Below, piece by piece: positions 686 to 40,755 of a stretch of DNA of 64,000 bases. A program made the translations under genes and the position numbers. The notes under the pieces were generated by a model. That model searched no databases and was not told the origin of the DNA. It saw only the letters and a program-made list of their open reading frames with translations. Origin of the DNA: an uncultured Verrucomicrobiae bacterium. GTDB taxonomy: Bacteria; Verrucomicrobiota; Verrucomicrobiia; Limisphaerales; Palsa-1400. The first letter of the stretch is position 1. Each line of letters starts with the position of its first letter. Where the stretch lies: assembly GCA_963707025.1 (NCBI GenBank), contig CAVPOM010000008.1, forward strand, positions 116,560-180,559. Direction: 5' to 3'.

Positions 686-686
686 C

Positions 687-4736: not shown

Positions 4737-4737
4737 C

Positions 4738-11260: not shown

Positions 11261-11282
11261 CATTTTGCCAACACCGGCCATC

Positions 11283-18920: not shown

Positions 18921-19835
18921 TTGCGTGCTCCCTTCGTGGCGCGGGCATGGAATTCCTCCGCCAATTGATTGCACAGGGCCTCCAACGCTTCCTCTGGATC
19001 GGCAAACGCCTGCTTCTTCAGCGTCCGACCCGAATTTTTGAAATGGAGGGCGAGAACGGCAAACGCAATCGCTTTGGTGATATGATTGGCATTGCCAAGG
19101 AAACGATTGAGAAGAGAACGTCAGGCGGTCGTAAGAAAATGGATGGCTGTTGCCACCCAAATTCCCCCCGTATAGCCCGATAGCTGTAGCTAACAGAAAC
19201 GCTTGGACAACGCCGAGCATTCGCTTAACGAATATGAGACTGTCTGCATCAATGCCGTCCAGCACCCATTCCGCCGCCGCGATGTCCGCCTCCTTTTCTT
19301 GAGAGAGACTTAATGCGTTGTCCACGCCGGCACTGTGGCGAAGACGTATGTGTGCCAACTCGTGATGAAGCAGGAAGGCGCAGGATACCAAGCAAAGCTC
19401 GTTCGCTGCATTGTCCGGCCCATCGGCGGGTGTCTCTTGGGGAATTGGAAGGTTTGGAGGCCAGTTGTCAGCAGTGTCGTTTTCAAGCTGGCAAATAATC
19501 GCCCAACGAAGCAACTTCAACGCGTTGCTGACGCCTCCATCGGAATGAGGGTCAATTTCCGTAGGCCGGTCAAGTTTCTTACCCTGGATCAACCGAGTGT
19601 AGAAAAGAAAATGGGCCAGTGACGAACACCAAATCAATTCCACTGCGCCACGGCTGACAAAAACCACCCGCTTTGAGGGATCGGCGTCGGCACAAAATTT
19701 CCAGCGGCGCTCATTGGTATATATGAGGTCAAAGTTGTCGAGCGAAATATCAAACTCTGATTTGCGCTCTGGTGCGATATTGAAGACCGAGTTGCCTAGA
19801 TTGTCTGCCATCAAATGACGAATCGGCGATTGCAT
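18917..19835 (-). CDS. lit: Lit-family (peptidase U49) phage-exclusion-like zinc protease (frameshift near 19117)
   Basis: FLLHHELAH (HExxH), QEKEADIAA, HPFSYDRL; removing one T restores a C-terminus whose TGA overlaps the next ATG; alternative start 19868. Confidence 0.7.
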
Positions 19836-19876
19836 CGTCGCTAGGCATGTTCTGTCAATTCGGCGCATATCGTGTC

Positions 19877-20848
19877 TTATGCGGAACGATCTAGTCCCAA
19901 ACGGACGTCAAACTTTGGGTAGATCTTCCGGAATGAATCCAAAATCTCACTTCTGATTTGGTCCATTTGTTGAATTGCGGAATGGGTTGGATGGAATACA
20001 GAACACTCCGGGACGTTGCAGCCACAGGGACGAATCTCACCGGCTTTGACCAAGCTTTCGTAAGTTGTCCGTAACTTCGCGAGCTGCTTTTCGATAGACC
20101 CCAATTCCTTTTTCGTCGCTGGCGACTGAATTTGGTGGCGGCTTGGGATTCGGCGTATCTCAGTGCCGTCCCTAAGTCGGTGGACGCCAGTGCCGAGGGC
20201 TTCGATTGTGTCGGTGATTGCTTTTTTGAACGCCGGAACAGAGCTTTCCTGATGGAAGGGTGTGTAAAATGCAGGCCGGTCAAAGAGGGAACTCATTAAA
20301 GCCAGTCGCTCTTCATCATTATCAACCTGAACTGAACCGACAAAAAGCTGCAATTCTTTCGATGAATCCGGGAATGCCTCCCCGCCAAAAAAGCGTTTGA
20401 GCAGTGATTCGGCTTTGTCCCGAAGGCGTTCTTCAAACTCAGGTCCTGACCAAACCTCGCATTCGTGAATGGCAACTTTCGACGCCTCGTTCTTGATGGC
20501 ATCACGAAGTTTAGCAGATATTACACCGCCGCTGATAACTATGCACTTGTCTGGAAAACCGCTGGGGCTTTTCCTGAGCTTTGCCAAATCAGATTTGGCT
20601 TTCGCTTTTGTAAGCTTCTGCCAGTTGGCACAGAGAGCGCAAATTCTCTGCCCGTTGGGAAACCTGTCACTCTCCCTCAATCCCCAGATGTCTCGACCTG
20701 AATCCGAGCCCGTTTGCCCATACCAATCGAGTGAAATCCAATCGTTAGTTCGCAAGAGGAACGCAAATACAAGCCGCTCAAATGTCGTGCCATCGTAATC
20801 CTCGAAGTGAATCCGATGCACCATGGTGGATGGCTGAGGTTTTCTCAT
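19877..20848 (-). CDS. Mrr/REase-like N-terminal domain plus unknown helical C-domain
   Basis: FERLVFAFL...YGQTGSDSGRDIWG; ATGA overlap with the MTase stop. Confidence 0.6.
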   Translation of the reverse strand: MRKPQPSTMVHRIHFEDYDGTTFERLVFAFLLRTNDWISLDWYGQTGSDSGRDIWGLRESDRFPNGQRICALCANWQKLTKAKAKSDLAKLRKSPSGFPDKCIVISGGVISAKLRDAIKNEASKVAIHECEVWSGPEFEERLRDKAESLLKRFFGGEAFPDSSKELQLFVGSVQVDNDEERLALMSSLFDRPAFYTPFHQESSVPAFKKAITDTIEALGTGVHRLRDGTEIRRIPSRHQIQSPATKKELGSIEKQLAKLRTTYESLVKAGEIRPCGCNVPECSVFHPTHSAIQQMDQIRSEILDSFRKIYPKFDVRLGLDRSA

Positions 20849-23800
20849 TGTTCCTCGGTTTCGGTGTCGCGGCCAAGGCGGTATTTGATGTCGTAGTTCA
20901 GGATGAAATCCAACTCCTCCTCCGTGAACCCGTAGTGTCGTGCGAGCACCGAGTCAATTTCGTCGAGGATGGGCTTGGATGGTCGGAAATTAAAGTATTG
21001 GACGGTTACGTTGCCAACTCCTTTATAAAGAACAGTTCTATGTGTCGAATTTTTATTGTAGCTCGCCATCAACCGAGAAAGCGTACTTGGAAAATCCTTT
21101 GTCTCGGCCTCTGGAATCTTCGGTATTCGAAAACCGAGGATTTCTCGTTTGTTGAGATTCCGGCAGTCGGAGTTCACCACATTAAACCAATAAAAAAGCG
21201 ACGACGACAAACATGCCAAAGCCACATCTCGATCATGGCGGTTCGCGAAAGGCAACACCTTTAATTCCGATGGTTCGGCTTTTCTTCCTTTGCTGTCTTT
21301 TACCTCTGGAATGAAATCCAAAAACTGAAGAAAGAAAGAGACCTTACGAGTGAAATACAGCCGAAATTGTGGGGTTCCGCTTGTCAACATCTCGATTGTG
21401 AGCGGTTGGGCGCGGAGCTTCTTCAAAATTTGCCGTTCAATATTCGTCTGAATTTTCGTCATCGAAGCATCGAAGAATTGCCTATCTCCAGTAGGCGGAA
21501 GGCCAAGATAAAATGGACGCACGTTGAAAAGCTGCGGCCGTTCGTCGGAATACCATTTCAGGTATTTTGAAGTGAAAATGCGACAGTCGGCTTTGCTCTT
21601 GCGGCGGGACAGAACGATTTCTAAGCGCTTATCAACACCCTCGAACAGCTTTGCGGGGTGTGCGTCTCCTGACCAGTGGCTCACCCACAGATCTGCGTTG
21701 TTCTCATAGTAAAAAGCTTGGAAAGATTTGAAGCCGCCAACGGAAAAGGCGCTAAGCGGCACAATGAATCCCAAGGCGGAATTTGGGCGGGCCAATTCGA
21801 CGGATCGTTCAAGACAAAGATTGTATAAGTCGCCGCAATCGCTTGTCGAATAGCCGCGCACCACATAGCCAGTAACATCCTTAAGTTCTACATACGGCGG
21901 GTTCCCAATAATGACATCGAAGCCGCCGCTTGCGAGGATGCCGTAGAACTGAATGAACCAGTGGAATGGCTGATGAGATTTTACCCACTTGGCGTAGGCA
22001 ACTTTGTCGCTCCCCTTTACGCCGCATTCGCTGGCAAGGTAACGATTGAGTTCGTCTTCCAGCGCCTTGAGCCGATTCTGGAGATTCTGCTTGTCGGCGG
22101 TGGGCACTGAACCGTCGCCTTCCGTCTGGAGTTGGCGGAATTTGCTAAACGCCTGGTCCACGTCGGCACAACGGGTATTGAACCGCGTGAAGCTGCCCAA
22201 ATCAGCTTCGTCCATCAATTTCATCTGGCCGCCAGCGAGTTCCTTCATGCAACGGCGCACCTCTTCTGCCGTGGCGTAGCCGACAAGGGTGTTGCCAGCC
22301 CGGATGTTGAAATCAATATCCGGCAGCGGCTCGATACCGAGGTTATCGCGAGCGGGGTTCGGCTCGACCTGGGCGGCAAGCTTGAGGAACAGGCGCAGTT
22401 TACAGATTTCCACCGCCTCTTCCATGATGTCCACGGCGTAGAGATTATTGAGGATGATGGATTTCAGGACGAAGTAGCGTCGGTTGGGGTGAGCGTCCAC
22501 GCGAGCAAGGACTTCGCTGAATTTCTTGTGGTAGTTGGGATGGGCCTTGCGGCCGTTGTCGCCCCACTCAGCAAGGAACGCTTCCATGCGGTCGAGACAG
22601 GCTTCGTAGAGGGGTTCAAGGATGTTGAGTGCGGCGAAGATGAATGCGCCCGAGCCGCCAGTGGGGTCAAGGACGGTGATGGTGGTGATGGCCTGCCAGA
22701 AGGCCATGAGCAGGTCGGGGCCTTCGCAATTCTGGATGACATCCTGCGCGAACTGGCGGAGATCGAGATTGAGGGTAATAAAGTCGTTGACCTCCCGGAC
22801 TTCGCCTGCGGCAAGTTTCTTATTGACTTCCTCGCAACGCTGCCGCCGGGCAACGACTTCACGCCAGATTTCGGTGGGCAGGGCATACTCGCCGGACGCG
22901 GGTTTATTCCACGTCTTGCGGCGTTCGATCAGGTCGGGCGTTGTGGTAGCCAGACCGGCAACAATTTCCGGCGGGAGTTTTTTGTCCGTGCCATGGCGCA
23001 CGGCGGGGTAAATGTAGCGATCCGGATTTTCGCGGAGCAAATCCCAAACGGTCGGGCCGTTGGGATTCTCAAAGGCCACCTTGCACTTGGCGCGGGCGGC
23101 GTCGAAGAGGAACGGAAGAACCGTGTTTTTGCTGATGTATTCGGTGATGTCCTCCTTCGTGTAATACGCCCCCATTTGCTTCTGGTTGATATATTTCTCG
23201 AAGATGTAGCCAAGCACGTCGGGATTGATCTCGTTGTCGGCGCGGAGCGGGCGCTCGTCCAAGTGCCATTGGTATTGATCAAAATAATCGAAAACGCGCT
23301 CGAAGGCTTTGTCGGGAATCTGGATGTCCTTGCCATAGCGTTCGGGCTGTTCAAGTTCATGCACGTCGAACAAGCCGCCGTTAAGATACGGGATGTTGCC
23401 AAGGAGTTTTTCGAGGTCGGGCGCGCGGTCTTTGCGGCGCTTGCCAAAGCCTTCATGGAAAAGGCGGAGCAGGAAATAACGGTAGAATGTGTAGAACTTG
23501 TCCTTGCCCTGCTCCTTTTGGCAGCGATCGAGGCGGTTGCGGAGGTAGTTGTGGTCGCCGTCGAGGAACCCCTTGCGCTGGATGAAATAGACGAACATCA
23601 AGCGATTGAGCATGACGGAGGCATACCATTCACGGTCGGCCACTTCGCCAATGCCGTCAATGAATTTGAGGAAGGCTTTGCGGTGCGTGTCGAAGTCACG
23701 GTAGAACGCCTTGGTGACACGCTCGATGTCGAACGCGGCGCGGGCGCGCCCGGCAATGGTGATGGTGGACAGTTCGCCTTTTTCCTCTTCTTCGAGCGAA

Positions 23801-24207
23801 ACGTAGAGAATTTGCAGTTTCTGTAGCAGGGAGTCGCCGGGCTGGGCGCGATTGAAGTCGTGCTTGCGGGCGGAAAGCGGGCGGCCCGGCTCGCGGCGCA
23901 CCCATGTCCAGGATTGTTGGGCGAAGTCACCGGAGGCGAATACGATGAGATGCTCGAAACTGGTCTGGGTAAGGGCGCGGTCGAGCTTCAACCGCGTCGT
24001 GTGATCGGGCAGGACCCCGTCCACGCTGGCGCAAAGCCAGGCGGTGAAGCCGCGCTTTTCGGCGACGGCCGTAAAGGCGAAATCGGTTTCCCGTGCGCGG
24101 AGCGTGAGCTTTTGGCGGCACGGCTCCCAACCGAGTTCTTCGACAAACAACGTGGTAAGATTCCCACTTTGCAGCAGGGGGCGCGCGCGTTGGAAATCGA
24201 ATGGCAT
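20845..24207 (-). CDS. N6-adenine DNA methyltransferase, Eco57I/type IIG-like, 1120 aa
   Basis: IPYLNGGLF, LGYIFEKY, GAYYT, DPTGGSGAF (motif I), FDVIIGNPPY (motif IV), C-terminal TRD-like region. Confidence 0.92.
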   Translation of the reverse strand: MPFDFQRARPLLQSGNLTTLFVEELGWEPCRQKLTLRARETDFAFTAVAEKRGFTAWLCASVDGVLPDHTTRLKLDRALTQTSFEHLIVFASGDFAQQSWTWVRREPGRPLSARKHDFNRAQPGDSLLQKLQILYVSLEEEEKGELSTITIAGRARAAFDIERVTKAFYRDFDTHRKAFLKFIDGIGEVADREWYASVMLNRLMFVYFIQRKGFLDGDHNYLRNRLDRCQKEQGKDKFYTFYRYFLLRLFHEGFGKRRKDRAPDLEKLLGNIPYLNGGLFDVHELEQPERYGKDIQIPDKAFERVFDYFDQYQWHLDERPLRADNEINPDVLGYIFEKYINQKQMGAYYTKEDITEYISKNTVLPFLFDAARAKCKVAFENPNGPTVWDLLRENPDRYIYPAVRHGTDKKLPPEIVAGLATTTPDLIERRKTWNKPASGEYALPTEIWREVVARRQRCEEVNKKLAAGEVREVNDFITLNLDLRQFAQDVIQNCEGPDLLMAFWQAITTITVLDPTGGSGAFIFAALNILEPLYEACLDRMEAFLAEWGDNGRKAHPNYHKKFSEVLARVDAHPNRRYFVLKSIILNNLYAVDIMEEAVEICKLRLFLKLAAQVEPNPARDNLGIEPLPDIDFNIRAGNTLVGYATAEEVRRCMKELAGGQMKLMDEADLGSFTRFNTRCADVDQAFSKFRQLQTEGDGSVPTADKQNLQNRLKALEDELNRYLASECGVKGSDKVAYAKWVKSHQPFHWFIQFYGILASGGFDVIIGNPPYVELKDVTGYVVRGYSTSDCGDLYNLCLERSVELARPNSALGFIVPLSAFSVGGFKSFQAFYYENNADLWVSHWSGDAHPAKLFEGVDKRLEIVLSRRKSKADCRIFTSKYLKWYSDERPQLFNVRPFYLGLPPTGDRQFFDASMTKIQTNIERQILKKLRAQPLTIEMLTSGTPQFRLYFTRKVSFFLQFLDFIPEVKDSKGRKAEPSELKVLPFANRHDRDVALACLSSSLFYWFNVVNSDCRNLNKREILGFRIPKIPEAETKDFPSTLSRLMASYNKNSTHRTVLYKGVGNVTVQYFNFRPSKPILDEIDSVLARHYGFTEEELDFILNYDIKYRLGRDTETEEQ

Positions 24208-24210
24208 AGA

Positions 24211-27200
24211 TCAATCTTTACGGACGCCAAGGGAGCAAATGATTTTGGGTTCGCGCGCTTTCACGTCATCCTTCTGAATGCAGAGGCGGTCTTCTTCATG
24301 GAGTGAAAGGACCAGAGCGACAAGTTTTTCATCACTGACGCCAGCGCGAAGTTCACGGTTGAGCAAATCACGGGCGGCCTCGGTCAGCGGCGACTCGTAG
24401 ATTTCGTCAATTGCCTGATGGAGCGGTTTGATGTCAAACAAACTGTCCTTCACATGGGCGGCATATTCCTTGAGCCGCTCATAGATGCGACGGCGCGCGC
24501 TGGATGGTTTACCGAGCTGGCCACCAGTGGTGATGCGTTCGGTCTGGATGCCACCGATGGCTTTTTGAACGAGGGGATGGTGATTGGCCAGGCGCGGGAT
24601 CGTGGGTGTGGCCGGTTCGCACGCGGCGGCGCGCAAGATTTCGTGCTGGCTTTCGGTGACGGTGCGCCCTTCTTCGTCCACCCAGGCGAGCGCATCGTTC
24701 CCATCGGCTGTGCGGACGTAAACCATGACGCCGGAGGCGGGCTGGGGGCCGGATGCGCCAACGGGCTTGGCAGGAATGGCAGTCAGGGCCTTGGTCGAAA
24801 AAATGACACCGGGCAGATCGGGGATAGTTTTTTTCAGGGTTGGGTCGGTGTCGCAGGCGTTTTTCCAAATCTGGTAGGCCAGTGACGCCAGGTCCACTTC
24901 GTCGTCCGCCGGATCGTTCAAAATGCCGGATTTTTCCGTGAAGAGGTCGCGGATAACCGTGTCGTGTTTTTCGTCCTCGAAAAATGTTTCGTCCGTGCCG
25001 ACGACTTCGGCATTTTCACTCAAGCGCTGGCGGACCCGCGAGCGCAAGCGGATCAGACGCTCGACTCCATCCGCCGGGACAAACGAATAACAAAGAATCT
25101 CCTCCGCTTTTTGGCCGATTCGATCCACACGGCCCGCACGTTGAATGAGGCGGATAATGGCCCACGGCAAATCGAAGTTCACGACGATGGCGGCGTCCTG
25201 GAGGTTCTGACCTTCGCTCAGAACATCAGTGGCGACCAGCACGCGGAGTTCTTCGGCTGGTGAAACGTAGTGGGGTTCCCCTTTGTCCTGAGCTTTGTTG
25301 CTCTCCGGGCTGAAACGGCGGGCGTAGCGGGAAGGGTCTTCGATGTCGCCGGTGACGCCCGCCATCTGTTTGAGTTCGCGCTCGTGCAACTGGGCCGCGA
25401 GGTAAGAAACAGTGTCGGCAAACTGCGAGAAGATGAGAATCTTCTGGCCGGGATGCTTTTTGGTCACAAGCTTGTGGAGTTCGGCCAGCTTGTGGTCCTC
25501 CTCGGGTTCCCATTGGCCCGCAAGTTCGAGGATGGAGAAAAGGCGTTGGGCATCCTGCCGCAGGTGCTCGGCAAGGTCTTCGATAAAGACGTTGGCGCGC
25601 AACCAGTCGAAATTGCGGGTGTGCTCGGTGCGGAGCGTTTGATAGCCGGTTGCCCCGGCTTTGGCAAAATCGGCCAGGGACTTTGCAGTGATTTCGGTTG
25701 GAGTTGCAGCTGCTGTCTCGTCCGTGCCGAACAACGTGCTGTCGCTGTCGTGATCGTCAGCGCGGGTGTCGAACAGGGCGGAATCCTGCGTGCCAATGGG
25801 AAGAGGCAAGTCATTTTCCAACGCATGGAGAAAGATATAATTGCGCAGGATGTGGCGGCGCACAGAGAGAAGAAAGGAATGGCCGCTGCTTTCCAGCCGC
25901 TTGAAAAGGTTTGTCCGGCAGAAACCGATGAGACGTTTGCCGGCGCGGGAAAGGTTGTCCATCACTTCGGCTTCATTCTGGGCCGGTGGCACGTCGGATG
26001 GAGGCTTGAGATAATTGGCGAGGCCGTAGCGGGGCAGGTGCAGCACACGGACGGTGTCAACCACCTGGTCAGAATAAAGCCGGGCGTATTGGTCGTTCGG
26101 GTCGCTGTCACGAATCCGAAACGTGAGGGTCTTCGGCTGGCGTTTGGGGAAATGAAAACGGCTGCCGCCTTCAAGGATGAGGAATCGCCGGTCTTCTTTG
26201 GCCTTGGCGCGTTGGCAGTTGGAACATTTTCCCTGGGTGGGCAGGAGCACGGTGGCGCACGCGGGACACTCCGTGAAGGCGTAATTCCGTTCAACGAAGC
26301 TGCGCGTGCGGCGAACCATGAACAGGCGCATCAACTCGCGCCAGTCGTCGGCGTAACCGCTTTTCTCAAAGGCGGAGAGGCAATTGACGGCGCACTGATG
26401 GCGGCGGGTGAATTCATCGGGGCGACCGTCGCAGTCGCGTCGGAGGTATTCCTCGGGCCGGATGCCAACCACGTCCTCTGGATTCATGAACAGGCGAAGC
26501 TGGTTGGCGAGATCGAGATAAGCTTTGTTGTAGGGCGTGGCCGAAAGGAGGATGCACTTGCTCGCGTTGCGCGCCAGATAATCTCGCACCACCGCCCAGC
26601 GCCGGCCCTCGCGATTTCGCAAGTTGTGATTTTCGTCAATGATGACGACGCGGTAGCGGCGGAGGTCGGGCAGGCTGTTCTGCGCCTGGGTGATGGAGAC
26701 GACCTCCGCGATCAAGCGGTAACGGTGCGCGTAGTCTTTCCACATGCCGACGAGATTTTTCGGGCAAAGGATGAGGGTTTCGAGCGAGCGGGGCGGGTCC
26801 TGAAATACGCGGGCAAGTGCGGTGGCCATGAGAGTTTTGCCAAGCCCGACGACATCGCCGAGGATTACACCGCCGCGCTTTTCCAGATGCCGGGCCGCGA
26901 TGCGCACGGCGGCGGACTGAAATTCCAGCAGCGTATCACGCATGTCCGGCGGGATGGTAAATTCGGACAGGCCGGCGCGCGCCTCTTCCGCCAAGTGATA
27001 GGCCATCTTGACGTAAATTTGGTAGGGCGGCGGACATTCAGGCCGCGCCCAACTTTCGTCAATCACCTGGATGAGTTCCTTGGTGATGTCCACACACCAA
27101 CGGTCGCACCAGCGGTTCTTGAACCATTGTTCGAGCTTGGTTGAGGCGTCGTGGTCGAGGACGTCCACGTTAAGTTCGCCCTGATGGGAGAGACCCGCCA

Positions 27201-27693
27201 ACGTGAGATTGCTGGAGCCGAGAAAACCGGTGATTGGATTGTTAGGGTCGAGACGAAAACAGAGGTAGAGCTTTGCATGAAGGGTGTGACGGAGGAACAA
27301 TTTCACAACCACTTTGCCCGCCTTGAGCTGGGCTGAGAGGCGGCGAAGGCCGGCCTCGTCGGCGTCGGTGGGGGCGCCAAATGTAAGCTGGGCGCGAAAC
27401 TCCTCGGCGAGACGCCTTTTCAAACGAATGACCGCCTGCTGGCTGATCTGGTCCTCCTGGGGCAAAAGGCTGTAGGCGAGGCGCAGTTCGTCTTGGGCGA
27501 GCCGTTGCATCCCGACGAGGAGACGACATTGGGCGCCCTCGCCGCCCGCCCACTTTTCGATCAGGCCGTCAATCGCTTTCCAGCCGCGCAAATTGAAATA
27601 GCCAACGCAAAAGTCGGAGCGCTGGGAGATTTCAAGCGTATCCCGTAGCGCTGGGAGCAAATCAGTTTCGATGTTGTCGAAGATACGCGGCAT
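24211..27693 (-). CDS. PLD/Nuc-domain SNF2-family helicase, 1160 aa
   Basis: LHAKLYL...GSSNLT...ELN PLD motif; GDVVGLGKT, IIDENHNLRN, SATP, TDVLSEGQNLQ, QRAGRVDRIGQ. Confidence 0.92.
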   Translation of the reverse strand: MPRIFDNIETDLLPALRDTLEISQRSDFCVGYFNLRGWKAIDGLIEKWAGGEGAQCRLLVGMQRLAQDELRLAYSLLPQEDQISQQAVIRLKRRLAEEFRAQLTFGAPTDADEAGLRRLSAQLKAGKVVVKLFLRHTLHAKLYLCFRLDPNNPITGFLGSSNLTLAGLSHQGELNVDVLDHDASTKLEQWFKNRWCDRWCVDITKELIQVIDESWARPECPPPYQIYVKMAYHLAEEARAGLSEFTIPPDMRDTLLEFQSAAVRIAARHLEKRGGVILGDVVGLGKTLMATALARVFQDPPRSLETLILCPKNLVGMWKDYAHRYRLIAEVVSITQAQNSLPDLRRYRVVIIDENHNLRNREGRRWAVVRDYLARNASKCILLSATPYNKAYLDLANQLRLFMNPEDVVGIRPEEYLRRDCDGRPDEFTRRHQCAVNCLSAFEKSGYADDWRELMRLFMVRRTRSFVERNYAFTECPACATVLLPTQGKCSNCQRAKAKEDRRFLILEGGSRFHFPKRQPKTLTFRIRDSDPNDQYARLYSDQVVDTVRVLHLPRYGLANYLKPPSDVPPAQNEAEVMDNLSRAGKRLIGFCRTNLFKRLESSGHSFLLSVRRHILRNYIFLHALENDLPLPIGTQDSALFDTRADDHDSDSTLFGTDETAAATPTEITAKSLADFAKAGATGYQTLRTEHTRNFDWLRANVFIEDLAEHLRQDAQRLFSILELAGQWEPEEDHKLAELHKLVTKKHPGQKILIFSQFADTVSYLAAQLHERELKQMAGVTGDIEDPSRYARRFSPESNKAQDKGEPHYVSPAEELRVLVATDVLSEGQNLQDAAIVVNFDLPWAIIRLIQRAGRVDRIGQKAEEILCYSFVPADGVERLIRLRSRVRQRLSENAEVVGTDETFFEDEKHDTVIRDLFTEKSGILNDPADDEVDLASLAYQIWKNACDTDPTLKKTIPDLPGVIFSTKALTAIPAKPVGASGPQPASGVMVYVRTADGNDALAWVDEEGRTVTESQHEILRAAACEPATPTIPRLANHHPLVQKAIGGIQTERITTGGQLGKPSSARRRIYERLKEYAAHVKDSLFDIKPLHQAIDEIYESPLTEAARDLLNRELRAGVSDEKLVALVLSLHEEDRLCIQKDDVKAREPKIICSLGVRKD

Positions 27694-27917
27694 TGTGGGC
27701 CTCAGTTGACGATGGAATGCACGACAATGCCTCGCTTATGGCTGTCCCGTATGCCTGAGTTGTTTGGTGGTCCCGACATGGCTGGCTGATTATGCTACCG
27801 GCTGCCAAATTTTCAAATAGATTGATTGGGCGGCTTTCCAGCGCGGGTTGAGAGACGGTGTATAAGGGGGGGTGAGGAGGCGTTCGCGCCGGACGGCACT
27901 CCGCAACGGGGTGGCCA

Positions 27918-29480
27918 TCAGAGTCCCCATTGCCTGTCGGACGCTTCTTTGGCCGTTATCTTCATGAGGGTTTCAACCCCAAGCGAGAGGCCGTGGGCCA
28001 CGCTCAGGCGGTCGAAATCTTCCGCGCCGACCTCCTCAGCCACAAATCCCGCAGGCTGCATGAAGTGAATGCGGTTAAGGCCCTGGCCGAGACTGCGACG
28101 ACGATAAGGCTCAATCTCCCAGGCGGTGAGATTGATAATGTGCTGCTCCAGCCGTTTCGGGAAGAGGTCCAGATAAAAGTCCGCACGGCTGCCGCCACCA
28201 GAGAGGATGAAGTTTGCTTTTGTGCGAAACGCGGGCGGGCGGCGGTTTTGAAGCAGGAACGGTTCATCAATGTACCGTTTGAAAGCGGCAAAGTTGCCCC
28301 GGCATGCATCGAGGCAATCTGAGGCAAAGGCTGCGCGGCTCTTGTGATAGGCGGTTTCGAGTGAAGAATCGGTACGTGCGTTCGGAACCAGGAACCCAGC
28401 GGGAGAATCAGGGATGCGCCAATCGGGGTCTTCCCCGACAGACACGGCGGTGCGGACTTGAGCAGGCGACACAGCGCGCAATGCCTGGTCAATTCTCTCG
28501 TAGAGCCTGAATGCTCCAAGCTGGGCCACTTCGCAAAAATGGAATGAGCAAATCTCCTCGCCGTCAATTCTGTGAAGTATGAGCGTGGAGATGTCGAGAG
28601 TTCCGGCACCAACGTCAAGCAACAGGAGAGGGCCTTCGCTGCGGTAGGGTGAAAAGGCATAGCCAGCCAATTGAGCTGCGATCTCGGGATAAAGGGAAAG
28701 CCTTTCATCTGCGAGTCGCTGGGTCTCGCTGGAGGGTGGCAACCCTGAGGTCATGCACATGCGCACCAACTCGCGCGTGATGGTTTGTCGGGAATCCACC
28801 GCGCAAATGGCGGCCCTGGCAGCCAACAAATAGGAGTCGACCAGTTTTGGGTTGTTTTTGAGTCGCTTGGCGGGAAAGCCGATGTTCAGCCACCAGCATG
28901 GCTGCCTGGCGCGGTGATCATTGGCGTGATTATCTTGATACCAGGTAAAAGTATGCATGAGCACCAGGGCGATGAAGATTGCAAGGTCGAGCGCGGCGTC
29001 AGATTCGCCTGATCCGCGCGTGATGGCGTCCACCAGCCGGAGCTTAATGTTTGAAGTCGGCTGCACTCCGTCGAGAGGGTGGAGCGTCGCGGTTTGGGTT
29101 GATTCGTAGAAACGGGTTGGGATGAGATATTTTGTGACACCTTTTGCCCTCGGGGCAAAGACCACACCGTAGTGGCGATCCCAATGGGAATCGCCAATGG
29201 CAACCTTGCTGCAGCTCGTTCCGATGTCGAGGCCGATGCGGAGATCCACGACTGGACTTTGCATGGAACGAAGATTGGGCTGTTCCGGGGGCAGGACGGA
29301 CGGGGCTTCCTGGTAGCGGACGCGTTTTTCTGGCGGCGCGGCAGGCTCTGGGGGTGCAGGCGGTGGGGGGCCGGCAGGGGTGATGCCCTTGGCGGAGTCC
29401 GCCGGCTTGGGCACTTGGGGAGGCGGTGTGTTTTGCTCGCCTCTCAGCCACATCCGTAATTTCTGAAACCAGCCAGCCAT
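27918..29480 (-). CDS. Actin/Hsp70-fold (ASKHA) ATPase with N-terminal amphipathic segment and Pro-rich linker
   Basis: ATG 29480 with RBS AGAGGT; IGLDIGTSCSKV (phosphate 1), YPEIAA (connect 1), LLDVGAGTLDIS (phosphate 2), ILSGGGS (adenosine), SVAHGL (connect 2). Confidence 0.8.
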   Translation of the reverse strand: MAGWFQKLRMWLRGEQNTPPPQVPKPADSAKGITPAGPPPPAPPEPAAPPEKRVRYQEAPSVLPPEQPNLRSMQSPVVDLRIGLDIGTSCSKVAIGDSHWDRHYGVVFAPRAKGVTKYLIPTRFYESTQTATLHPLDGVQPTSNIKLRLVDAITRGSGESDAALDLAIFIALVLMHTFTWYQDNHANDHRARQPCWWLNIGFPAKRLKNNPKLVDSYLLAARAAICAVDSRQTITRELVRMCMTSGLPPSSETQRLADERLSLYPEIAAQLAGYAFSPYRSEGPLLLLDVGAGTLDISTLILHRIDGEEICSFHFCEVAQLGAFRLYERIDQALRAVSPAQVRTAVSVGEDPDWRIPDSPAGFLVPNARTDSSLETAYHKSRAAFASDCLDACRGNFAAFKRYIDEPFLLQNRRPPAFRTKANFILSGGGSRADFYLDLFPKRLEQHIINLTAWEIEPYRRRSLGQGLNRIHFMQPAGFVAEEVGAEDFDRLSVAHGLSLGVETLMKITAKEASDRQWGL

Positions 29481-29500
29481 TGCGACCTCTCTTTGCTTGC

Positions 29501-32500
29501 TCATCCAACGGCAAGCAGTCCGAAGCAGATTTTGGTGAAACTCAGCTTCAGTCCTGGCACGCTGCTGTATCTCCCGGCGCTGAAGGGCGCACCGTTCCTT
29601 AAGTTTTTGGATCTGACCGAAGGTCGCCTCAGCGAGACTGTCGCGACCTTTATCCATGTGGGTCCGGAGCACTTCGTTCAATTTCTCGACCCGCCGGAAT
29701 TCAAAGCGATCGAACGGATGTCTGTTGAATCTTGGCGCGATCATCATTCTCGTCCATGCACTGCTGTTCGAAGACGAGAAACTCCTCTGAAGCAAGGGCC
29801 TCCAGCCTGGTGACCACCGAGGCAACCTTGGTGAGATCAACGTCAATGCCCGGGTCTCGCCAATCCTCGCCGGCACCGATGGCCTGCTCCAGCGCGCGTT
29901 CGACTTGGGCACGGTCGGGAAGAGGCTCTCCGGACGTGAGCGGGGCGGCGAGAAAATGTAGTTTTTCGATTTCTCGGAGGCCGGTAACCTGCCAGCGCTG
30001 AACGTTGAAGACATAAATGCCTGGCGCGAGACCCTCTGGGTGCGCAACGTGGGCGAGTCTTATTGCGACGGGCACGCAGTGGCTTAGCTGCTCGGTGCGA
30101 GTTTTCCAGGCGGCGAATCGGACGAGGGGATGGGATTGGGAAACGATCTCCTCGCCGGCGGCTGGCTTGAGGAAGCTGCGGTTGTCGAAGAGGAGGCGCC
30201 GTTTCTGGACGGTGTTGAGGCGGGTTTGGCCGATGAGATTCCTGAGCTGGAGGAAGCGATCGAACTCGAAAAGAGCATCGTTATCCAGGCAAAGGTCGAA
30301 GGAATGGTCGCGTGCGTTTACGCCTTGTAGCCCAGTGACGGGAAAGCATTTGCGGAAGAAGTCGAGCATGTAGCGCTCGATTTCTTCGGCTTTGATCCAG
30401 CGCTCCATCCGGTGGCTCGCTTCGATCTGGCGGAGGATATAATCACCGTAAGCGGCGAGGACGACGGCCTTTTCCTCGAGTTCCTCCTGGAATTTGATGC
30501 CGTAAGCGAGGGCCTGCTCGGCACGTTTGATGCATTCCTGCTGCTGCTCCGGCGACAAGCGATGAGTCAGGAGGTCGCGAGTCAGCTCGGAAAGGATTGG
30601 CCCCAAAACCGCTTCCAGATCACCCAGGGCGCGGCGGAACAGGTTCAAGCGCATGTAAAGGCGGTCGTAGATGCGTTCGTCAATAGTGTCTTCGGCGATG
30701 AGGTTGAAGATGAGGATGCGGTCAGCTTGTTGCCCAATACGGTCAAGGCGGCCGATTCGTTGTTCGACAACCATAGGGTTCCAGGGAAGGTCGTAGTTGA
30801 TGAGCACTTTCGCGAATTCAATGTCCAGCCCTTCGCTGCCGACCTCGGAGGAGAGGAGGAGGCGTGCGGTTTTGGATACGCGGAAGTCGTTAATGATTTC
30901 CTGCTTGCTCTCGGCCATCCCCCCGAGGAGGAGGATCGTCTCGATGCCCTTGGCGGCCAGCCTGCGGCGGAGGTAGTGCAGGGTGGGGCGGAAGTAGGAG
31001 AAGAGCACGACTTTCTCGGCTGGGTTTTGATCCCAGTAATCTTTGAGGGTGGAGGCGAGCATGGCGAATTTGGTATCGCATGCTTCAAGGCTGGCCGGGG
31101 TTCCAAGGTGCTGGACATTCTCGCTGATGAAGGTGACCAGGGGGTGGCTTTCATCGCTGTCGGCCGCCGCGTTGTCGAGGTCTGGATTGATCTCCATTTC
31201 TTCCTCCAAGTTGAGGGAGTGGGTGTCCCATCGGGCGCAAGCGGCAGCCATGCAACTGGCAACCTGGCGCTGGGGCATGACGAACAGGAAGCCTGCCGGT
31301 AGATCATGCTGCTCGGCATAGCGGAGTACGAGTTCAGTGACGCCGTCGTAAAATGCTCGCTCCTGATCCGTGAGTTTCACACGAACGGTGTTCACTTCAC
31401 GCTCGACACGCCTTCCAGGGATGTCGCGCTTTCTGGTGCGATTGATGGCGTGGCCGAGGAGATTGACCTTTTCAACCCGATAGGCCAGTTCAATGCGGCT
31501 TTGCGGAGTCGCCAATACGGCAGGATCTCCTTGGATTTGCTTTTGGATGCTTTCCAGGACGCGGCTGTCTTTGAGGAAGGGGTTGAGCGCAGCCTCAGTG
31601 AACTTCTGGCGAATATCCTCAAGCTTACCGGCCGGGTTCAGGAGGAGGTCGCGCAGGCAGACTAAAGGCGCGTTTGCCTCAAGAATGCTGCGGAAGGCGT
31701 AGGGGTTATTAAATGTGTCAGGATCCAGGAGGCGCAGCAGGTTGTAGAGATTTTCGTTGCTGGTATGGATGGGTGTGGCGGAGAGAAAGACACGATGGCT
31801 GGCGGCAGCGGTGGCGAGTTCGCCAAGCTCGGCGGTGCGGTTCTCCCTGTTCCGCATGTAGTGGGCTTCGTCAATGACGACGAGATCAATGGGGGTTGAA
31901 TTCGCAGACAGTTCTGATAGGAGATGGGCAACGGCGATGCGGGGGTTCTTGTCCGGGGCTTCCTCTTGCCAATTGGATGGGGGGCGGAGGCCGTGGAACG
32001 AGGCAACAATCGCAAAGGAGTGGTTGGGGTCCTGGCGCAACTGGCGGAGGTGGCCGAGGACTTCTTTCGCGCCACAGATTTCGGCTTTGACGCCGAAACG
32101 GTTCTTGAGACTCCATGACCCACTTTTCGCGGAGATGCGGTGGGCAAATGACCAGCAAGTTTCTGGCGCCAGACCGGGCGCGCAATTCAGTCCAGATGAG
32201 TCCAGCTTCAATCGTTTTGCCGAGGCCAACTTCGTCGGCGATAAGAAGGCTGTTGGTGGGGGATTCGAGAAGCTTTAAAACCGGCTTGAACTGGTAGGGA
32301 AGGAACTCGGTCTGGGAAGTCTCCATCGAGTAGATGACGTTGGCGAGGCGGCCGGTGAGCTTTTCATGGGTGAGGATGCGCTGAAAGCTGGCGAGCCCCT
32401 GGATGCGGCCATTCACAAGGTCATCGAGAGGATCTGCGTGGGTTGGTTGGCGCTCCAGGTTGGCCGCCCGGTGCCAAGTTGCCACATGGCTGCCATCGAA

Positions 32501-32626
32501 GAGAACTCTGACCATTAAGATGCCGTTGACGTCCCTGCGAAAGCGCTCGGCAGAAATCACGCCGGCGCGCTCCGGGTTGCCGATCAGCCGGACACGAATG
32601 TTTGATTGGATTTCGCGCTCTTCCAT
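29501..32626 (-). CDS. SNF2/RapA-like helicase, about 1040 aa (frameshifts near 32111, 29713, 29531)
   Basis: [51 protein letters not shown]; restored C-terminus [15 protein letters not shown] at 29501. Confidence 0.88.
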
Positions 32627-33519
32627 GGGGCGGCTAGATGCTCACATTTGGTAAGTTTGCTCCTGGAAGTGCGTGCAACGTCTCCTCGGCTTGCCGGTTC
32701 GTAGTTTGGGTGTACCGGCGGTCTGGTCTCGGACGAGACGCGTTCCGAGTGGTGGTGCTGTTCGTTGCACCGAGTAACGGCACAGGGATGTCAGCAGATC
32801 ACTCATACTGCGCACCCCAGTAAGGCGACACCATTTGTGCCGAACCAGTTGTTGTCCAGTTGGCAGAACATTCGCGGCTATTCTATCACTGTGCGCCTGT
32901 TTGCACGAGCAAGGATTTTTGAGCGGTTCCCCCAGATGGGCAGATTGCATTGGTGAGCGCGGTCGGGGCCTGTTCCGGTGTCTGGCCGTCCAAGTCGTTG
33001 ATCCCCAGTCTTTCAACTGCCCTGCCATCGCCAGGCTGCTGAATGTCGCGAATAAATCTCCCGGTGGTTGAATGGCCACCCAGTAATTCAGCAGGTGCTC
33101 ACGCCTGGAACAAGGCACCGCGACGGCCTTTCTAACGCCTGCCAGTACCACGGCCATGACGAGGAAAGCGTTCAGACCGTTTTTCCATCGGCGCAGGCGG
33201 CGGTAGAAGGAAATCCAGCGCATTGGATAAAATCCAACGGGTTGGATATGAGTTTACGGATGTTACGGCCTCCGCATAATCGCCACGATGAAAGAGAAAT
33301 CAAGTTTCGGCGCGGGGCACGCATTGGCTAATCAACAGGCACCCGGCCTCATCGAGAACCAACCGCATCGCCTGGGTGAAACGCACCTGTTGGCGGAATT
33401 GCGCGGAGGCAAAAATTGCTGGGGATTGGTGGCCGTTCAGGCTTGCGCCGCAGGTCGGCGATTAACGCGAGATGTTGAGGTTGGTCCATTGTCTCCATTT
33501 CAATAAATTAAATTCAACC

Positions 33520-34143
33520 ATGTCCAATCCAACACTTGGAATAACCCTGGCAGCTCCCACAATTGCGGTTTCTGCCACCGCTGTGGGATCCGAATACATT
33601 CGGCTTCCGCGCCCTGGCGAGCACGACCCGTTCTTCGGCCTCACGCGCTCATATCTGAATCTTCTCATTTTGCCCTCAAGAGAGAACGACTTCCGGCCTC
33701 CAGTGCGCAGCAGCGTGTTGCGACAAGGGAACGCGAGGACGGGCGTGCGCTTGGTGAATGTGGCCAGCTTGCGAGCGCATCTAAAAAATCAAATGCAAGC
33801 CGCAGATGAGCAATCCTCAGTTGCACCAGTTGGCGAAGAGGCCTCGGACCAGCCACCACCCATTTCGAACGTGGAATTCTTGCGCGTCCCCAAGCCGAAA
33901 GCGCGGGACCCGCTCTTCGGTCTTTCACGCTCGTTTTTAAACCAATTGATTTTGCCCTGTGAGGAAAACGGACATCGCCCGCCTGTGCGCAGCCATGTGC
34001 TTCGAAGAAGGGGTTATCGCACTGGAATCCGGCTCATAAGCGTGGACAGTCTGCGGGATCACATCAGGGCGCACGAGGATCCCAGCGCAAGCCCTCCAGA
34101 TTCAACGGCGACCACACATGGCACTGGGCAAGGCGATATTTAA
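33520..34143 (+). CDS. Protein with two tandem excisionase/AlpA-like DNA-binding repeats
   Basis: EYIRLPRPGEHDPFFGLTRSYLNLLILP...VRLVNVASLRAHL repeated as EFLRVPKPKARDPLFGLSRSFLNQLILP...IRLISVDSLRDHI. Confidence 0.6.
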   Translation: MSNPTLGITLAAPTIAVSATAVGSEYIRLPRPGEHDPFFGLTRSYLNLLILPSRENDFRPPVRSSVLRQGNARTGVRLVNVASLRAHLKNQMQAADEQSSVAPVGEEASDQPPPISNVEFLRVPKPKARDPLFGLSRSFLNQLILPCEENGHRPPVRSHVLRRRGYRTGIRLISVDSLRDHIRAHEDPSASPPDSTATTHGTGQGDI

Positions 34144-34760
34144 CTTCCCAGATCCTCAGCGAGATCCTTCAACACGCGTTTCGCGAGCACCCGGACCTGC
34201 CTGCTGTGGTCTCTAACTCTGTGATACGGCACATGGTCCGCCCAAAAGAATGACTTTTCCCACTCATCAATGTCTGGAAGCAACTTTGGCGGGGCCTTCC
34301 TGTGAAGCCGCAGAAAAAACTCCCTTTTGAGGTCCACCAGGCTGGCATCCGCATCGGGCTCAGTCCCGGCTACGAGCACAACGGTGGTTTGCTCTTCTTC
34401 GCCGTCCCAGGTGCGATGAATCAACTCATGGATAAAGAGCAGCTCGCGGTTTCGCCAAGTTCCTTCTATCACGGAATTGGTGGCCGATCTGATGTAATGC
34501 AGGAAGGCGCTTTTTGTTCGCACATGTTCCATCTTTGGCCGGCGGCCGGAATTGCCATTCCGGGTCCCGCGAATAAGTGAGAGCAATGCCTTTTGGACCG
34601 CATCCTCCCCTGAAAACCGGCTGCGGGGGAGCCAACCCAGCCGGCGTTCGGCAAATTCGGCCAATCGATTTAGATCCGCGGCTGTGAGCTGGTGCAACTG
34701 TTCAATTGTGAGCGCTCGAATTTGACCAAGGCGCGCTGCCTTTTTCGACGGCGTTTCCAT
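34140..34760 (-). CDS. ECF sigma-70-like protein (divergent)
   Basis: LNRLAEFAERRL...GEDAVQKALLSL...FLHYIRSA resembles sigma region 2; C-terminal helical region. Confidence 0.45.
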   Translation of the reverse strand: METPSKKAARLGQIRALTIEQLHQLTAADLNRLAEFAERRLGWLPRSRFSGEDAVQKALLSLIRGTRNGNSGRRPKMEHVRTKSAFLHYIRSATNSVIEGTWRNRELLFIHELIHRTWDGEEEQTTVVLVAGTEPDADASLVDLKREFFLRLHRKAPPKLLPDIDEWEKSFFWADHVPYHRVRDHSRQVRVLAKRVLKDLAEDLGS

Positions 34761-34901
34761 GATCTTTCGTTTGGCGCAGATTTCTCTGGCCAAACAAGCG
34801 CCGGCTGACCGGGAGACTTCCGTTGGGGGCGGATGAAGAGCGTGAAGGGCGGCCAGGCGCGATCCGGAGCCTCGCTGACTGCCTTCGCCGGGTGAAGGGA
34901 T

Positions 34902-35968
34902 TTACTTTGCGGCTCGAACTTGCTGGGTTTCCACATCCACCTCCTGCGGCAAGAGAATCACCTTGCCGCCGCCATTCTGGTAAGCCACTTCATAATCCTC
35001 CAATGCCGGAATTTTCACCTTCGCCTTTTTCGCATAGGCGCGGGCCACCGCCTTGGAACCGTGTCCCAGCCCGGATTGCGCGTGCCGTTCGGGATAGCCA
35101 CAGGTGGCGGCGCGTTCCGCCCATCCGTAACGATAGCTGTGCAGCGTGACCCCCTCGATGCCCAGCCCACGGCAGCGCTGCTTGAATTCGGTGGCGCGGT
35201 ATTTTTCACGGATCGTGATCAGATACGGGAAAAGCGGACCCAACTTCGGCCGCCTCGCCAGAACGGCTGCCGTTTTATCCCGAAGCGCTGGAGCGCGTCC
35301 CTGCCGTTTTTCTTCCGGCGATAAAACACCGTGCGGTCCTTCCAGTTTACATCCTCGGCATGCAGCGATGCAACATCCGTCTGGGAGCCTCCCAAAAACC
35401 ACAGCAACTCGTAATAATCGCGCCGCTCCGGGTTCTTCTCGCGCGCGATGATCTGCTGGTGTTCCCCCAGCGTGATGCCGCGCTTTTCGCCGTACACGAC
35501 CTTGGGCCATTGCTTCCTGGCCAGAATGCCCCAGGCCAGCCAGTTCATGGCCAGGGCATGGTTGTGCAGCCGCCGCAGGAACACATTGGTCAATACCGTG
35601 CCATGCTTGAGCATCTTTAACAGATGATCGGCCCGTGTTTGCACTACCGGGAGATTCCAAAGAGCGGCCAGGGCCTTGTCCTTTTCCGTGTTCTCCCAGC
35701 GTGTCCGGGTGGGCCCGGTTTTCTCCTCGATGATGGAGCGGATAACGTCGCGCCAGGTTCGTTCTGGCATGAGGGGATCGGATGCCACCATGTAAGCTCG
35801 GGCGATTTGCAGATTGAGAGTTCCCATCTGCCCGGCTTCATTTTTCGCGTGCAGGATGCGCCCGGCATCAACTTTGTCACAGGTGTGCAGGCTCTCCTGC
35901 TTCCCCGTGGCATTGTCTTGACAGTAGTAAACCTTCTTCCGCCGATAAAGTCGAAAGCTGTGCTTCAT
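34902..35968 (-). CDS. int: Tyrosine recombinase/integrase (frameshift near 35280)
   Basis: VTLHSYRY (HxxR), LGHGSKAVARAY (H, Y); N-terminal arm-binding-like YYCQDNATGKQESL; adjacent to tRNA-Cys. Confidence 0.88.
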
Positions 35969-36088
35969 GACCGGCTCCAGTCGGGAAGAAGTTTAGAGCA
36001 GACGAAAACAGCACCGTTATGAAGTTCAAGGCTAGTTCTATGGTAGTACGAGCATAGTTCGAGCCAGTTTGAGGCGACTGCGTCATTT

Positions 36089-36108
36089 TGCTGGCATTTC
36101 TGCTGGCA
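36089..36108. repeat. Direct repeat TGCTGGCA x2, candidate integrase arm-type sites
   Basis: TGCTGGCA at 36089-36096 and 36101-36108, between the integrase start and the tRNA 3' end. Confidence 0.5.
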
Positions 36109-36156
36109 CTTTATTTTTTTAAAGTTACAACTGATTGCAGCAGAGCATGTTAAAGA

Positions 36157-36231
36157 TGGAGGCGGGGGTCGGAATTGAACCGACGCATACAGCTTTTGCA
36201 GAGCCGTGCCTTACCACTTGGCTACCCCGCC
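36157..36231 (-). tRNA. tRNA-Cys(GCA)
   Basis: GGCGGGGTAGCCAAGTGGTAAGGCACGGCTCTGCAAAAGCTGTATGCGTCGGTTCAATTCCGACCCCCGCCTCCA; cloverleaf, anticodon GCA, encoded CCA. Confidence 0.97.
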
Positions 36232-39707: not shown

Positions 39708-40749
39708 TCAATTCCTTCGTGGAATGCGAATAGATGCAGTTTTTCCCTGCACGCGAATCTCAACTGGCGTCCAGGACAACTGGATGGTTTCCGGGCCAAC
39801 GTCCTCATGTTTTGCCATTTCTGTGAGCGAAGGGCGAATGTAGCGTTCCAGAAAAACGGACATGGTCTTGCCTGGCCTTGGATTCCAGGTGCGCCCAGGC
39901 ATCCGCACCGACATGGTGTTTGCCGCGGTTTGTTTTGAACGCTTCGATAAGCTCGTCTAGGCGCGGCGAAGGGGTCGGGTCGAGAACGATGAGCACGGGG
40001 GTCAAGCCGGCCGCGCCAGCTTCGCGGGGAAAGGACAGTTCTTCAGCGAAGCGGCCTTGACCGCTCGCCGCGATGGTGACGCGCAATTTGAATTCGTAGG
40101 CGAGGTGATGCTCACCGTCGTAGCAGTCAATCTGGCGGCCTTCGCCGGTTGGTTCGCCGCGCTCGTTCAGGCGTTTTACCGGCGAGTGCTTTGAGCCGAC
40201 AGCCTCACCGCCCAGACAACTGGCCAGCACCGGTTCAAATAAATATCCCGTTTCCTGCGCTGCCCGGTTGTCCAGGTCGAAAATCCATTTCCGCCAAACG
40301 AGCCACGAGGCGAGCAAGGCATCATCCACTCCGCCATATTCCAGCAGGCTGCGTGGACCAATTTGATTCATGGTGGGCTTTGGCTGGGTGGAAAGGATGC
40401 GTTGGTACTTGCGCCGACGTTTATGGAGGGTGGCAAGGTTCTCAAAGTAGAGGCGGAAGTCGGCCTCCTGCGCGGCACATGATGAGAGGCTCTCCAAAAG
40501 CAATGTCGCAGTTGGACAGCCAGCCTGGGGTGTTTGAAACCACGCAAGAGGAATTCGGAAATAATCGGCCCCGGGTGGAGCAACGGAGAGCTCCGGCAAA
40601 TGGGAAACAGACTCAGCCACAGCCAAATCGCGGCAGCATTGAGCCAGCAGACAGAACAACTCATTCTCGGAAAGCGCCACACGGTCATCCCCGTTTCCCA
40701 GAATTCTAGCGGCGCTGAAAGCTTTTTTGATTTCGGCGGAAACAGGCAT
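39708..40749 (-). CDS. Type II restriction endonuclease, ApaLI-like (frameshift near 39872)
   Basis: LHKRRRKY, WRKWIFDLDNRAAQETGYLFEP, RQIDC, YEFKLRVTIAASGQGRF match ApaLI as I remember it; C-terminus continues in ORF 39708..39914. Confidence 0.75.
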
Positions 40750-40755
40750 TGGTCC

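Follow-up and report, generated by a model that had tools for sequence, protein, structure and literature searches.

A strictly paired RapA/DrmD-like SNF2 ATPase and an unnamed Hsp70-like ATPase as a credible candidate for a bacterial defence system

In this study a 64,000-nucleotide stretch of DNA from an uncultured Verrucomicrobiae bacterium (contig CAVPOM010000008.1, positions 116,560 to 180,559; hereafter the window) was analysed with regard to two adjacent minus-strand genes between 27918 and 32626. These genes encode a SNF2 motor ATPase (the helicase) and an ATPase of the ASKHA type, i.e. of the Hsp70 nucleotide-binding domain (NBD)/actin fold. The two form a strictly paired cassette in which an unnamed family of Hsp70-like ATPases is joined to a distinct RapA/DrmD-like subfamily of SNF2 ATPases, and the surroundings of their homologues make the pair a credible candidate for a defence system. 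A first-pass annotation, made from the letters of the window, had put forward these genes as a stand-alone two-gene defence module with an actin/Hsp70-fold partner. The stand-alone module is strongly supported, since the genes co-occur when searched from either side, their trees match and they are closely spaced. The defence part of that proposal has gained support from the neighbour and island context and from nothing beyond it, and the ASKHA fold was recovered, with a Hsp70-type NBD fitting better than an actin filament protein at close scores.

An obligate, co-evolving and closely spaced gene pair

The two genes were found to be an obligate, co-evolving and closely spaced unit. Among 67 genome loci collected from the ASKHA side, three of which lie on contigs too short to judge, the helicase is located directly upstream in 61 (one of them frameshifted), that is in 61 of the 64 informative loci. 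The helicase-first search, which used a motif specific for the subfamily, found an adjacent ASKHA gene in 57 of 80 metagenome loci, i.e. in 57/57 informative ones, the remaining 23 contigs ending too early. Co-occurrence of homologues, which the first-pass annotation had named as one check of its proposal, therefore holds from both sides. Moreover, the six plasmid matches include four fetched records, all with the ASKHA gene (once upstream of the helicase), and a fifth in which it was detected by tblastn; G288 likewise has the ASKHA partner. Sister SNF2 proteins scoring at most 480 bits, including those of 61 viral loci, showed no ASKHA gene in the flanks covered.

In 90 homologous pairs the intergenic spacing ranges from -11 to 61 nt. 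The ASKHA and helicase trees agree with a Mantel r of 0.93. They were built after exclusion of pairs in which a gene was truncated or broken, and de-duplication reduced the set from 100 pairs to 90; 38 of 45 supported ASKHA splits are common to both trees and 3 conflict. Inter-protein covariation (mutual information with average product correction, MI-APC) in the 90 pairs, with an effective number of sequences (Meff) of 62, gave no clustered signal. Complex prediction for the C-terminal 540 residues of the L002 helicase and the ASKHA core (89-row alignments) scored 0.00 twice with the controls not folded, a result that counts neither for nor against contact. One solo ASKHA gene (L055:10007-11365) has BREX genes on one side and, on the other, an Azaca operon (ZacA, PLD protein, ZacC helicase) with which it is co-oriented.

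The ASKHA open reading frame (ORF) at 27918-29480 is uninterrupted, whereas the helicase as assembled is divided over three frames (32626-32110, 32109-29713 and 29714-29501). Its span of 3126 nt, less three extra bases, gives 1040 amino acids and a stop, in agreement with the length of about 1040 residues that had been read after correcting three indels. The other structural claims of that annotation also stood: the restored TGA (29503-29501) lies 20 nt before the ASKHA ATG with an AGAGGT ribosome-binding site (29490-29485) in the gap, the 520-residue ASKHA protein contains all five motifs, and intergenic gaps are present on both sides (224 nt on the downstream side and about 845 nt on the upstream side, where a divergent gene follows). 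The L002 homologue, 71-76% identical, served to locate the frame changes near 32110 and 29713, and the third, near 29530, is implied by the C-terminal ends of close homologues. At each of the three sites one base fewer is found in the short-read contigs from near-identical strains (run X1 at all three and X2 at two; single contigs of depth 2-4), as is the case at intergenic position 27864. As the extra bases are missing from these contigs, they are probably assembly errors; a true helicase pseudogene in this cell is unlikely, although the contigs are shallow and come from relatives. A genome-wide frame check found switches in 3 of 14 genes, a sample too small for an indel estimate. A fused helicase-ASKHA protein (709-residue ORF, 27918-30047) was considered and rejected as an insertion artefact, because in the assembly the last ~70 helicase codons read in frame into the ASKHA gene.

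The features of the pair and of its downstream flank are as follows.

29501..32626, minus strand: RapA/DrmD-like SNF2 ATPase gene, 1040 residues once the extra bases 32110, 29713 and 29530 are discounted
32213..32239, minus strand: helicase Walker A, ADEVGLGKT, the motif being present in 90/90 paired homologues
31861..31872, minus strand: helicase Walker B, DEAH, its D and E unchanged throughout alignment A2
30739..30762, minus strand: helicase motif VI, QRIGRLDR, in 90/90 homologues
29485..29490, minus strand: ribosome-binding site AGAGGT within the 20 nt that separate the genes
27918..29480, minus strand: ASKHA (Hsp70-NBD/actin-fold) ATPase gene, 520 residues, without a substrate-binding domain
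29439..29480, minus strand: N-terminal amphipathic helix, residues 1-14 (helix 3-12 in the model; hydrophobic moment 0.62)
29256..29438, minus strand: Pro-rich linker of low confidence, about residues 15-75 (pLDDT 48-65)
29205..29234, minus strand: phosphate-1 motif GLDIGTSCSK, residues 83-92 (D85, G87, K92), invariant in 90/90
28671..28691, minus strand: connect-1 motif, residues 264-270, with the putative catalytic Glu E266, from motif conservation
28587..28622, minus strand: phosphate-2 motif LLDVGAGTLDIS, residues 287-298 (D289, T294, D296), from motif conservation
28185..28205, minus strand: adenosine motif LSGGGSR, residues 426-432, from motif conservation
27984..28013, minus strand: connect-2 motif DRLSVAHGLS, residues 490-499, from motif conservation
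27789..27816, minus strand: sigma70-like site by consensus match, preceding the operon of PLD-SNF2 and type IIG restriction-modification (R-M) genes

The sigma70-like site lies inside the downstream flank (27816-27789) and may mark where the pair is bounded downstream; it matches the consensus at 10/12 positions and is weak, with 2 sites found vs 1.6 expected in shuffles. No excess of terminators was found, the Rfam scan gave no family other than the tRNA, and no meaningful repeats occur within the pair. One RNA run yielded short contigs over parts of the helicase, which say nothing on expression. In the upstream gap a 193-residue ORF (32642-33223, minus strand) without Pfam match was noticed, which is probably no gene.

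The motor, its Hsp70-like partner and their known relatives

A model was made of the intact, about 72% identical homologue in L002 (pLDDT 83.8); it shows the motor gene to encode a SNF2 ATPase that has the RapA fold over its full length, and the motor motifs are intact. The layout comprises an N-terminal Tudor-like domain, two RecA lobes, a RapA-like spacer and a C-terminal domain whose last part is a long helical hairpin. RapA was the best fold match over the whole chain (Foldseek E 1.9e-33, TM 0.44-0.47), and towards the C-terminus there is a resemblance to RapA_C clusters (12% of members). Thus the modelled fold is that of RapA (HepA), the RNA polymerase recycling factor, including its N-terminal Tudor-like and C-terminal domains; unlike RapA, the helicase has one Tudor-like domain in the model, a patchy and mobile distribution and an obligate partner gene, and its main piece scores 104 bits on the RapA equivalog PRK04914 vs a cut-off of 576.

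DrmD of class 1 DISARM, ArmA of ARMADA II and BrxHII of BREX are, like the helicase, RapA-like Swi2/Snf2 ATPases of about 1040 residues found in defence islands. These relatives are partnered by methyltransferases or YprA, whereas the helicase described here has a fixed Hsp70-like ATPase partner. The PADLOC model PDLC02623, labelled DrmD, covers the full helicase length (E 1.6e-182) and four intact homologues, also at full length, with 766-972 bits. On the NCBIfam DrmD equivalog (cut-off 610 bits) the pieces in the window score 249 and 112 and intact homologues 410-428, all below the cut-off, whereas the true DrmD in L044 scores 1406 bits and coexists beside the pair, as ArmA-like genes do too. 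By these scores the helicase belongs to a RapA/DrmD-like subfamily distinct from true DrmD. As PDLC02623 covers this separate subfamily under the DrmD label, members of the subfamily may wrongly be called components of DISARM.

The partner gene encodes, as shown by its model (pLDDT 87.9, fold ending near residue 510), a Hsp70-NBD-like fold with an invariant ATPase site and without a substrate-binding domain (SBD). In 90/90 paired homologues the phosphate-1 D and K, a second K, the connect-1 E, the phosphate-2 D/T/D and the adenosine GGG are invariant; since these catalytic residues never vary, the protein appears to be an active ATPase. The second invariant Lys, K146, is presumably the counterpart of the DnaK catalytic Lys, a match that the profile alignment did not confirm. 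No SBD was found, the C-terminal tail being at most 59 residues long in the 71 measured. In the Foldseek search of the model DnaK came first (E 6.8e-11) and nearly all top matches were Hsp70-family NBDs. With VIA-align, Hsp110 (Z-score 22.4, root-mean-square deviation 3.4, 300 aligned), Sse1 (22.2) and Ssz1 (21.8) led, and the matches ranked 1-6 were all Hsp70-family NBDs; the actin fold was likewise recovered, the bacterial actins (MreB, ParM, BeeR, FtsA, PilM) spanning Z 16.7-20.0, with BeeR at 20.0, PilM at 19.5 and MreB at 18.8. When the profile was aligned to the genome's own Hsp70-family protein, the connect-1, phosphate-2 and adenosine motifs could be located; the profile did not align to the MreB of the genome, nor to a second DnaK-like protein, and is a weak discriminator. 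Hence, a Hsp70-type NBD is favoured over an actin filament protein on these models, by a margin that is not wide.

Hsp70/DnaK, Hsp110 and Ssz1 share with the ASKHA protein the NBD fold and the connect-1, phosphate-2 and adenosine motifs, and YegD is another NBD-type Hsp70 relative. Unlike Hsp70/DnaK, the ASKHA protein has no SBD or lid and no Pfam HSP70 match (0/87 alignment members), and carries an N-terminal helix and a disordered linker. It had no match in Pfam, NCBIfam or PADLOC, and the family counts 1103 representatives at 50% identity (E up to 0.001). The N-terminal helix with a long low-complexity linker is present in most homologues, the extension being absent in 6/90; the linker has a median of 66 residues across the 90 and is poor in hydrophobic residues. 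Pooled N-terminal amphipathicity exceeded that of shuffles (Fisher p 1.5e-8 for 82 sequences, overstated by kinship), with p 0.89 for the linker control, and the helix is a candidate anchor to the membrane or to a partner. In place of the amphipathic helix a few ASKHA proteins have hydrophobic membrane-type segments, above threshold in 4/283. In a cyanobacterial plasmid (L140:6653-8887) the ASKHA gene stands before the helicase, and by inspection its product has an N-terminal hydrophobic hairpin and a long coiled coil. A K-D/E-x-x motif ends the C-terminal tail in 39/90 homologues, and two CxxCxGxG motifs, which we take to be zinc motifs of DnaJ type, end 9/90, a subclade of the family (L034, L038, L039, L042, L043, L044, L046, L064, L216); the clade of the window has neither tail.

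The pair could not be assigned to any named system. The first-pass annotation had stated that neither protein has an obvious nuclease domain, that the usual DISARM and Zorya partners are absent and that it knew no named system combining SNF2 with an actin-like ATPase, and the results are in line with this. Pfam detected no nuclease domain in the helicase or the ASKHA protein. None of the DISARM class 1 genes drmMI, drmA, drmB and drmC was found among the flanking ORFs scanned in the window, and DrmA/DrmB-like genes lie just upstream of the pair in L050, L052 and L058 only. The ZorD score was 15 bits vs a cut-off of 1500 for Zorya type I, with no ZorA/ZorB match shown among 112 neighbours. ARMADA I and II are described, in the accessible text, as SNF2 with a PglX-like methyltransferase and a YprA (DUF1998/MZB) helicase, joined in type II by UvrD (10.1101/2025.09.15.676423, PMC13463889). 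No MZB helicase was present among the island ORFs scanned in the window. CnuD of type III CoCoNuT resembles the ASKHA protein as a Hsp70-like ATPase domain within an anti-phage operon and, in the part of the description at hand, has NBD/SBD and HEAT-like repeats, degenerate phosphate motifs and McrB/McrC partners (PMC11090510). Unlike CnuD, the ASKHA protein has an invariant site, no SBD and a SNF2 partner; no conserved McrB/McrC neighbour was found beside the pair, with one McrB-like AAA neighbour in L038. Hsp70-like domains also occur in GTPase-centred conflict systems (PMC7159879), and in the accessible portions of both descriptions they are not paired with SNF2 (PMC11090510, PMC7159879). 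The PADLOC candidate PDC-M61 was rejected: 61/89 members match PDC-M61B weakly (best 6.4e-9), the match on the ASKHA genes checked covers about 27-33 residues at phosphate-2 and not the full length, and the model also fires in 2/14 control genomes. These comparisons (DISARM, ARMADA, Zorya, CoCoNuT and PDC-M61) give no sign that the pair is a fragment of an already named system. No description or name of a SNF2-ASKHA pair was found in PADLOC models or in the literature, where subscription journals were thinly covered and a recent name may be missed.

In the eukaryotic remodellers SWI/SNF, INO80 and SWR1, actin/Arp modules are coupled to a SNF2 ATPase. Arp4, Arp7/9 and Arp8 match the ASKHA model at Z 14-17. 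Unlike these complexes, the pair is bacterial, with Hsp70-type motifs, a RapA-type motor and no HSA domain identified, and the likeness is one of analogy.

Defence context and weighing of explanations

The pair was found inside several unrelated defence operons. In L027, L029 and L033 it is located within an ARMADA-like operon between the methyltransferase and YprA with UvrD, in L005 and L006 within an ARMADA-like operon between YprA with SNF2 and the methyltransferase, and in L010 it is inserted within a DUF499/DUF1156 operon. The cassette thus moves between unrelated defence loci. Embedding inside defence operons has served as a criterion for discovering new systems, as far as the accessible text of that work goes (10.1101/2024.01.29.577857), and therefore predicts a defence role of the pair. 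Moreover, 57 of 112 immediate neighbours (60 loci) match PADLOC models (PADLOC-DB from 2023, E up to 1e-6) vs 11 of 120 arbitrary ORFs of this genome, a control drawn from 14 arbitrary stretches of one genome and unmatched to the hosts. A defence-type immediate neighbour is present in 39/60 loci, a count that excludes three loci whose sole match is a generic methyltransferase or helix-turn-helix (HTH) model. In L050, L052 and L058 the pair follows UvrD, DrmA, DrmB and NERD/UvrD, with a cytosine methyltransferase nearby (and Vsr in two); no DrmC or DrmMI was seen in these loci, extended in L226-L228, and no other DrmD-scoring gene stands beside the pair. Such loci may be the route by which the subfamily entered the DrmD model.

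From this context a defence role of the pair, whether alone or as an accessory, is considered quite likely, and we lean slightly towards an autonomous, nuclease-free two-gene cassette acting against phages or plasmids. Several observations weigh against this reading. The unmatched control limits the neighbour comparison, 21/60 loci have no defence-type immediate neighbour, and L016, L034, L036 and L041-L043 have housekeeping surroundings. The pair contains no recognisable effector domain; the distant ASKHA members in L045, L061 and L055 are without the helicase; the N-terminal helix is individually significant in 14/90 homologues only and absent in 6; and a shared tree would also be expected of co-moving neighbours without protein contact.

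The pair may instead be an accessory or booster of restriction-type systems (ARMADA, DISARM-like, DUF499/DUF1156, type IIG/III R-M), in which the motor would clear phage DNA for the nuclease of a neighbour and the pair alone would be inert. This is a minority explanation to which some weight is given: the pair has no nuclease of its own, its close kin DrmD, ArmA and BrxHII all work inside methyltransferase/nuclease systems, it is embedded in ARMADA-like operons, it stands in L050, L052 and L058 where no rival DrmD-scoring gene is found, and in the window it lies just upstream of the PLD-SNF2/type IIG operon. However, the partner systems vary between loci, the ARMADA-like and DISARM loci flanking the pair retain their own SNF2 (L005, L006, L008, L012, L031, L044), and the 21 loci mentioned above offer no such neighbour. 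A housekeeping function on mobile elements is unlikely, namely that a RapA paralogue with a Hsp70-like co-factor resolves transcription/replication conflicts or maintains the elements, the island location being incidental. The full-length RapA fold with its Tudor-like domain, the occurrence on plasmids, integrase neighbours in L019, L022 and this window, and the CxxCxGxG ends in 9/90, hinting at a chaperone-system ancestry, are in its favour, whereas the insertion between genes of defence operons, the absence of a conserved third gene beside the pair (no conserved replication, par or integrase neighbour among the loci) and the lack of any match in 50,697 phage records, with 6 of 72,556 plasmids only, speak against it. 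Very improbable is a membrane-anchored, polymerising actin-like protein of BeeR, MreB or ParM type, with the SNF2 protein as its DNA-linked cargo or adaptor. BeeR, PilM and MreB score about 2.5-3.5 Z below the best Hsp70-family match, amphipathic or membrane helices are found at the N-terminus, and the phosphate-1 Lys is presumably as in actin, ParM and PilM; against this stand the Hsp70-family NBDs among the top structural and Foldseek matches and the profile alignment to the Hsp70-family protein of the genome and not to MreB, a weak point as the second DnaK-like protein failed too.

For the autonomous cassette, a switch-plus-remodeller mechanism can be speculated, which in its specifics is rather doubtful. 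The ASKHA protein would switch between ATP and ADP states, and its N-terminal helix would place it at the membrane or on a partner; it would hold the motor inactive, or would recruit and license it once an infection cue appears. The motor would then strip protein machines such as RNA polymerase or replisomes from the invading DNA or, as an alternative outcome, would strip such machines across the chromosome so that the cell arrests. This action is modelled, by analogy, on RapA prising RNA polymerase off DNA; in RapA the clamp of RNA polymerase is opened when nucleotide drives a change of conformation, according to the accessible part of the source (10.1101/2024.09.28.614012). The cue, the contact between the two proteins, the placement at the membrane, the target of the motor and the protection itself are all putative. 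A still bolder and quite improbable idea is that the cassette represents a bacterial version of the SNF2-actin/Arp logic, arisen independently from a Hsp70 NBD. In it a membrane-tethered actin-fold switch would be indispensable as a subunit of the RapA-type motor and, on sensing phage entry, would direct the stripping of RNA polymerase or replisomes from the incoming DNA. If true, this would mean immunity by nucleoprotein remodelling without nuclease, methyltransferase or toxin.

DISARM, ARMADA, BREX, Dpd, Hma and Zorya all contain SNF2 ATPases. If a defence role is confirmed, the cassette of a RapA-type motor and an ATP switch would be a minimal system for working out what SNF2 motors do in defence, and the pair would define a large unannotated Hsp70-like family and a nuclease-free mode of defence.

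Distribution, integrated element and neighbouring genes

The cassette is widespread but rare and patchy. It was found in 2/401 genomes of this phylum and in 4/400 genomes of one proteobacterial class, including the search centre and one decayed fragment. Viral contigs gave distant SNF2 proteins only, and a distant blastn search of E. coli genomes gave no match, which at the DNA level is no proof of absence. The nearest named loci, L001 and L002, are from Verrucomicrobiota; in both (3215-6861) a Hsp70-TPR protein of 792 residues and a UvrD helicase were observed directly upstream of the pair.

In the window the pair lies close to one end, the right one, of an integrated element; this end is marked by the following feature.

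34902..36231, minus strand: frameshifted tyrosine integrase (34902-35968) and tRNA-Cys (36157-36231), right end of the element

On the same contig, about 125 kb upstream, the 3' end of the tRNA-Cys is repeated as a 22-nt copy (G000:C8 ~27788-27809), with an 11-gene tRNA array (G000:C8 72468-81806) between the two, and the island looks like one large tRNA-Cys integrative element. The GC content at third codon positions (GC3) of the pair is 0.65-0.71 vs 0.77-0.83 in the three core genes dnaA, glnA and aroA. Downstream of the pair, the operon at 18333-27693 encodes a PLD-SNF2 helicase, a type IIG R-M enzyme (PDLC03628, 1211 bits), a 323-residue Mrr/LmuA-like protein and a Lit-like U49 peptidase, and a DUF3644 gene is also found among the downstream genes. 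An AAA ATPase and a split S8 peptidase at 10106-13839 are presumably IetAS-like, and the frameshifts in this peptidase and in the integrase may be assembly errors like those of the helicase. Wadjet-like jet genes occupy positions 2-5556. Adjoining the integrase, at 33472-34793, a 223-residue gene product with two tandem repeats (no Pfam match), which we take to be AlpA/excisionase-like, faces a 217-residue one with a weak sigma-70 region 2 match. Outside the island, at 39805-42408, a cytosine methyltransferase and an unannotated 314-residue neighbour form a probable type II R-M pair.

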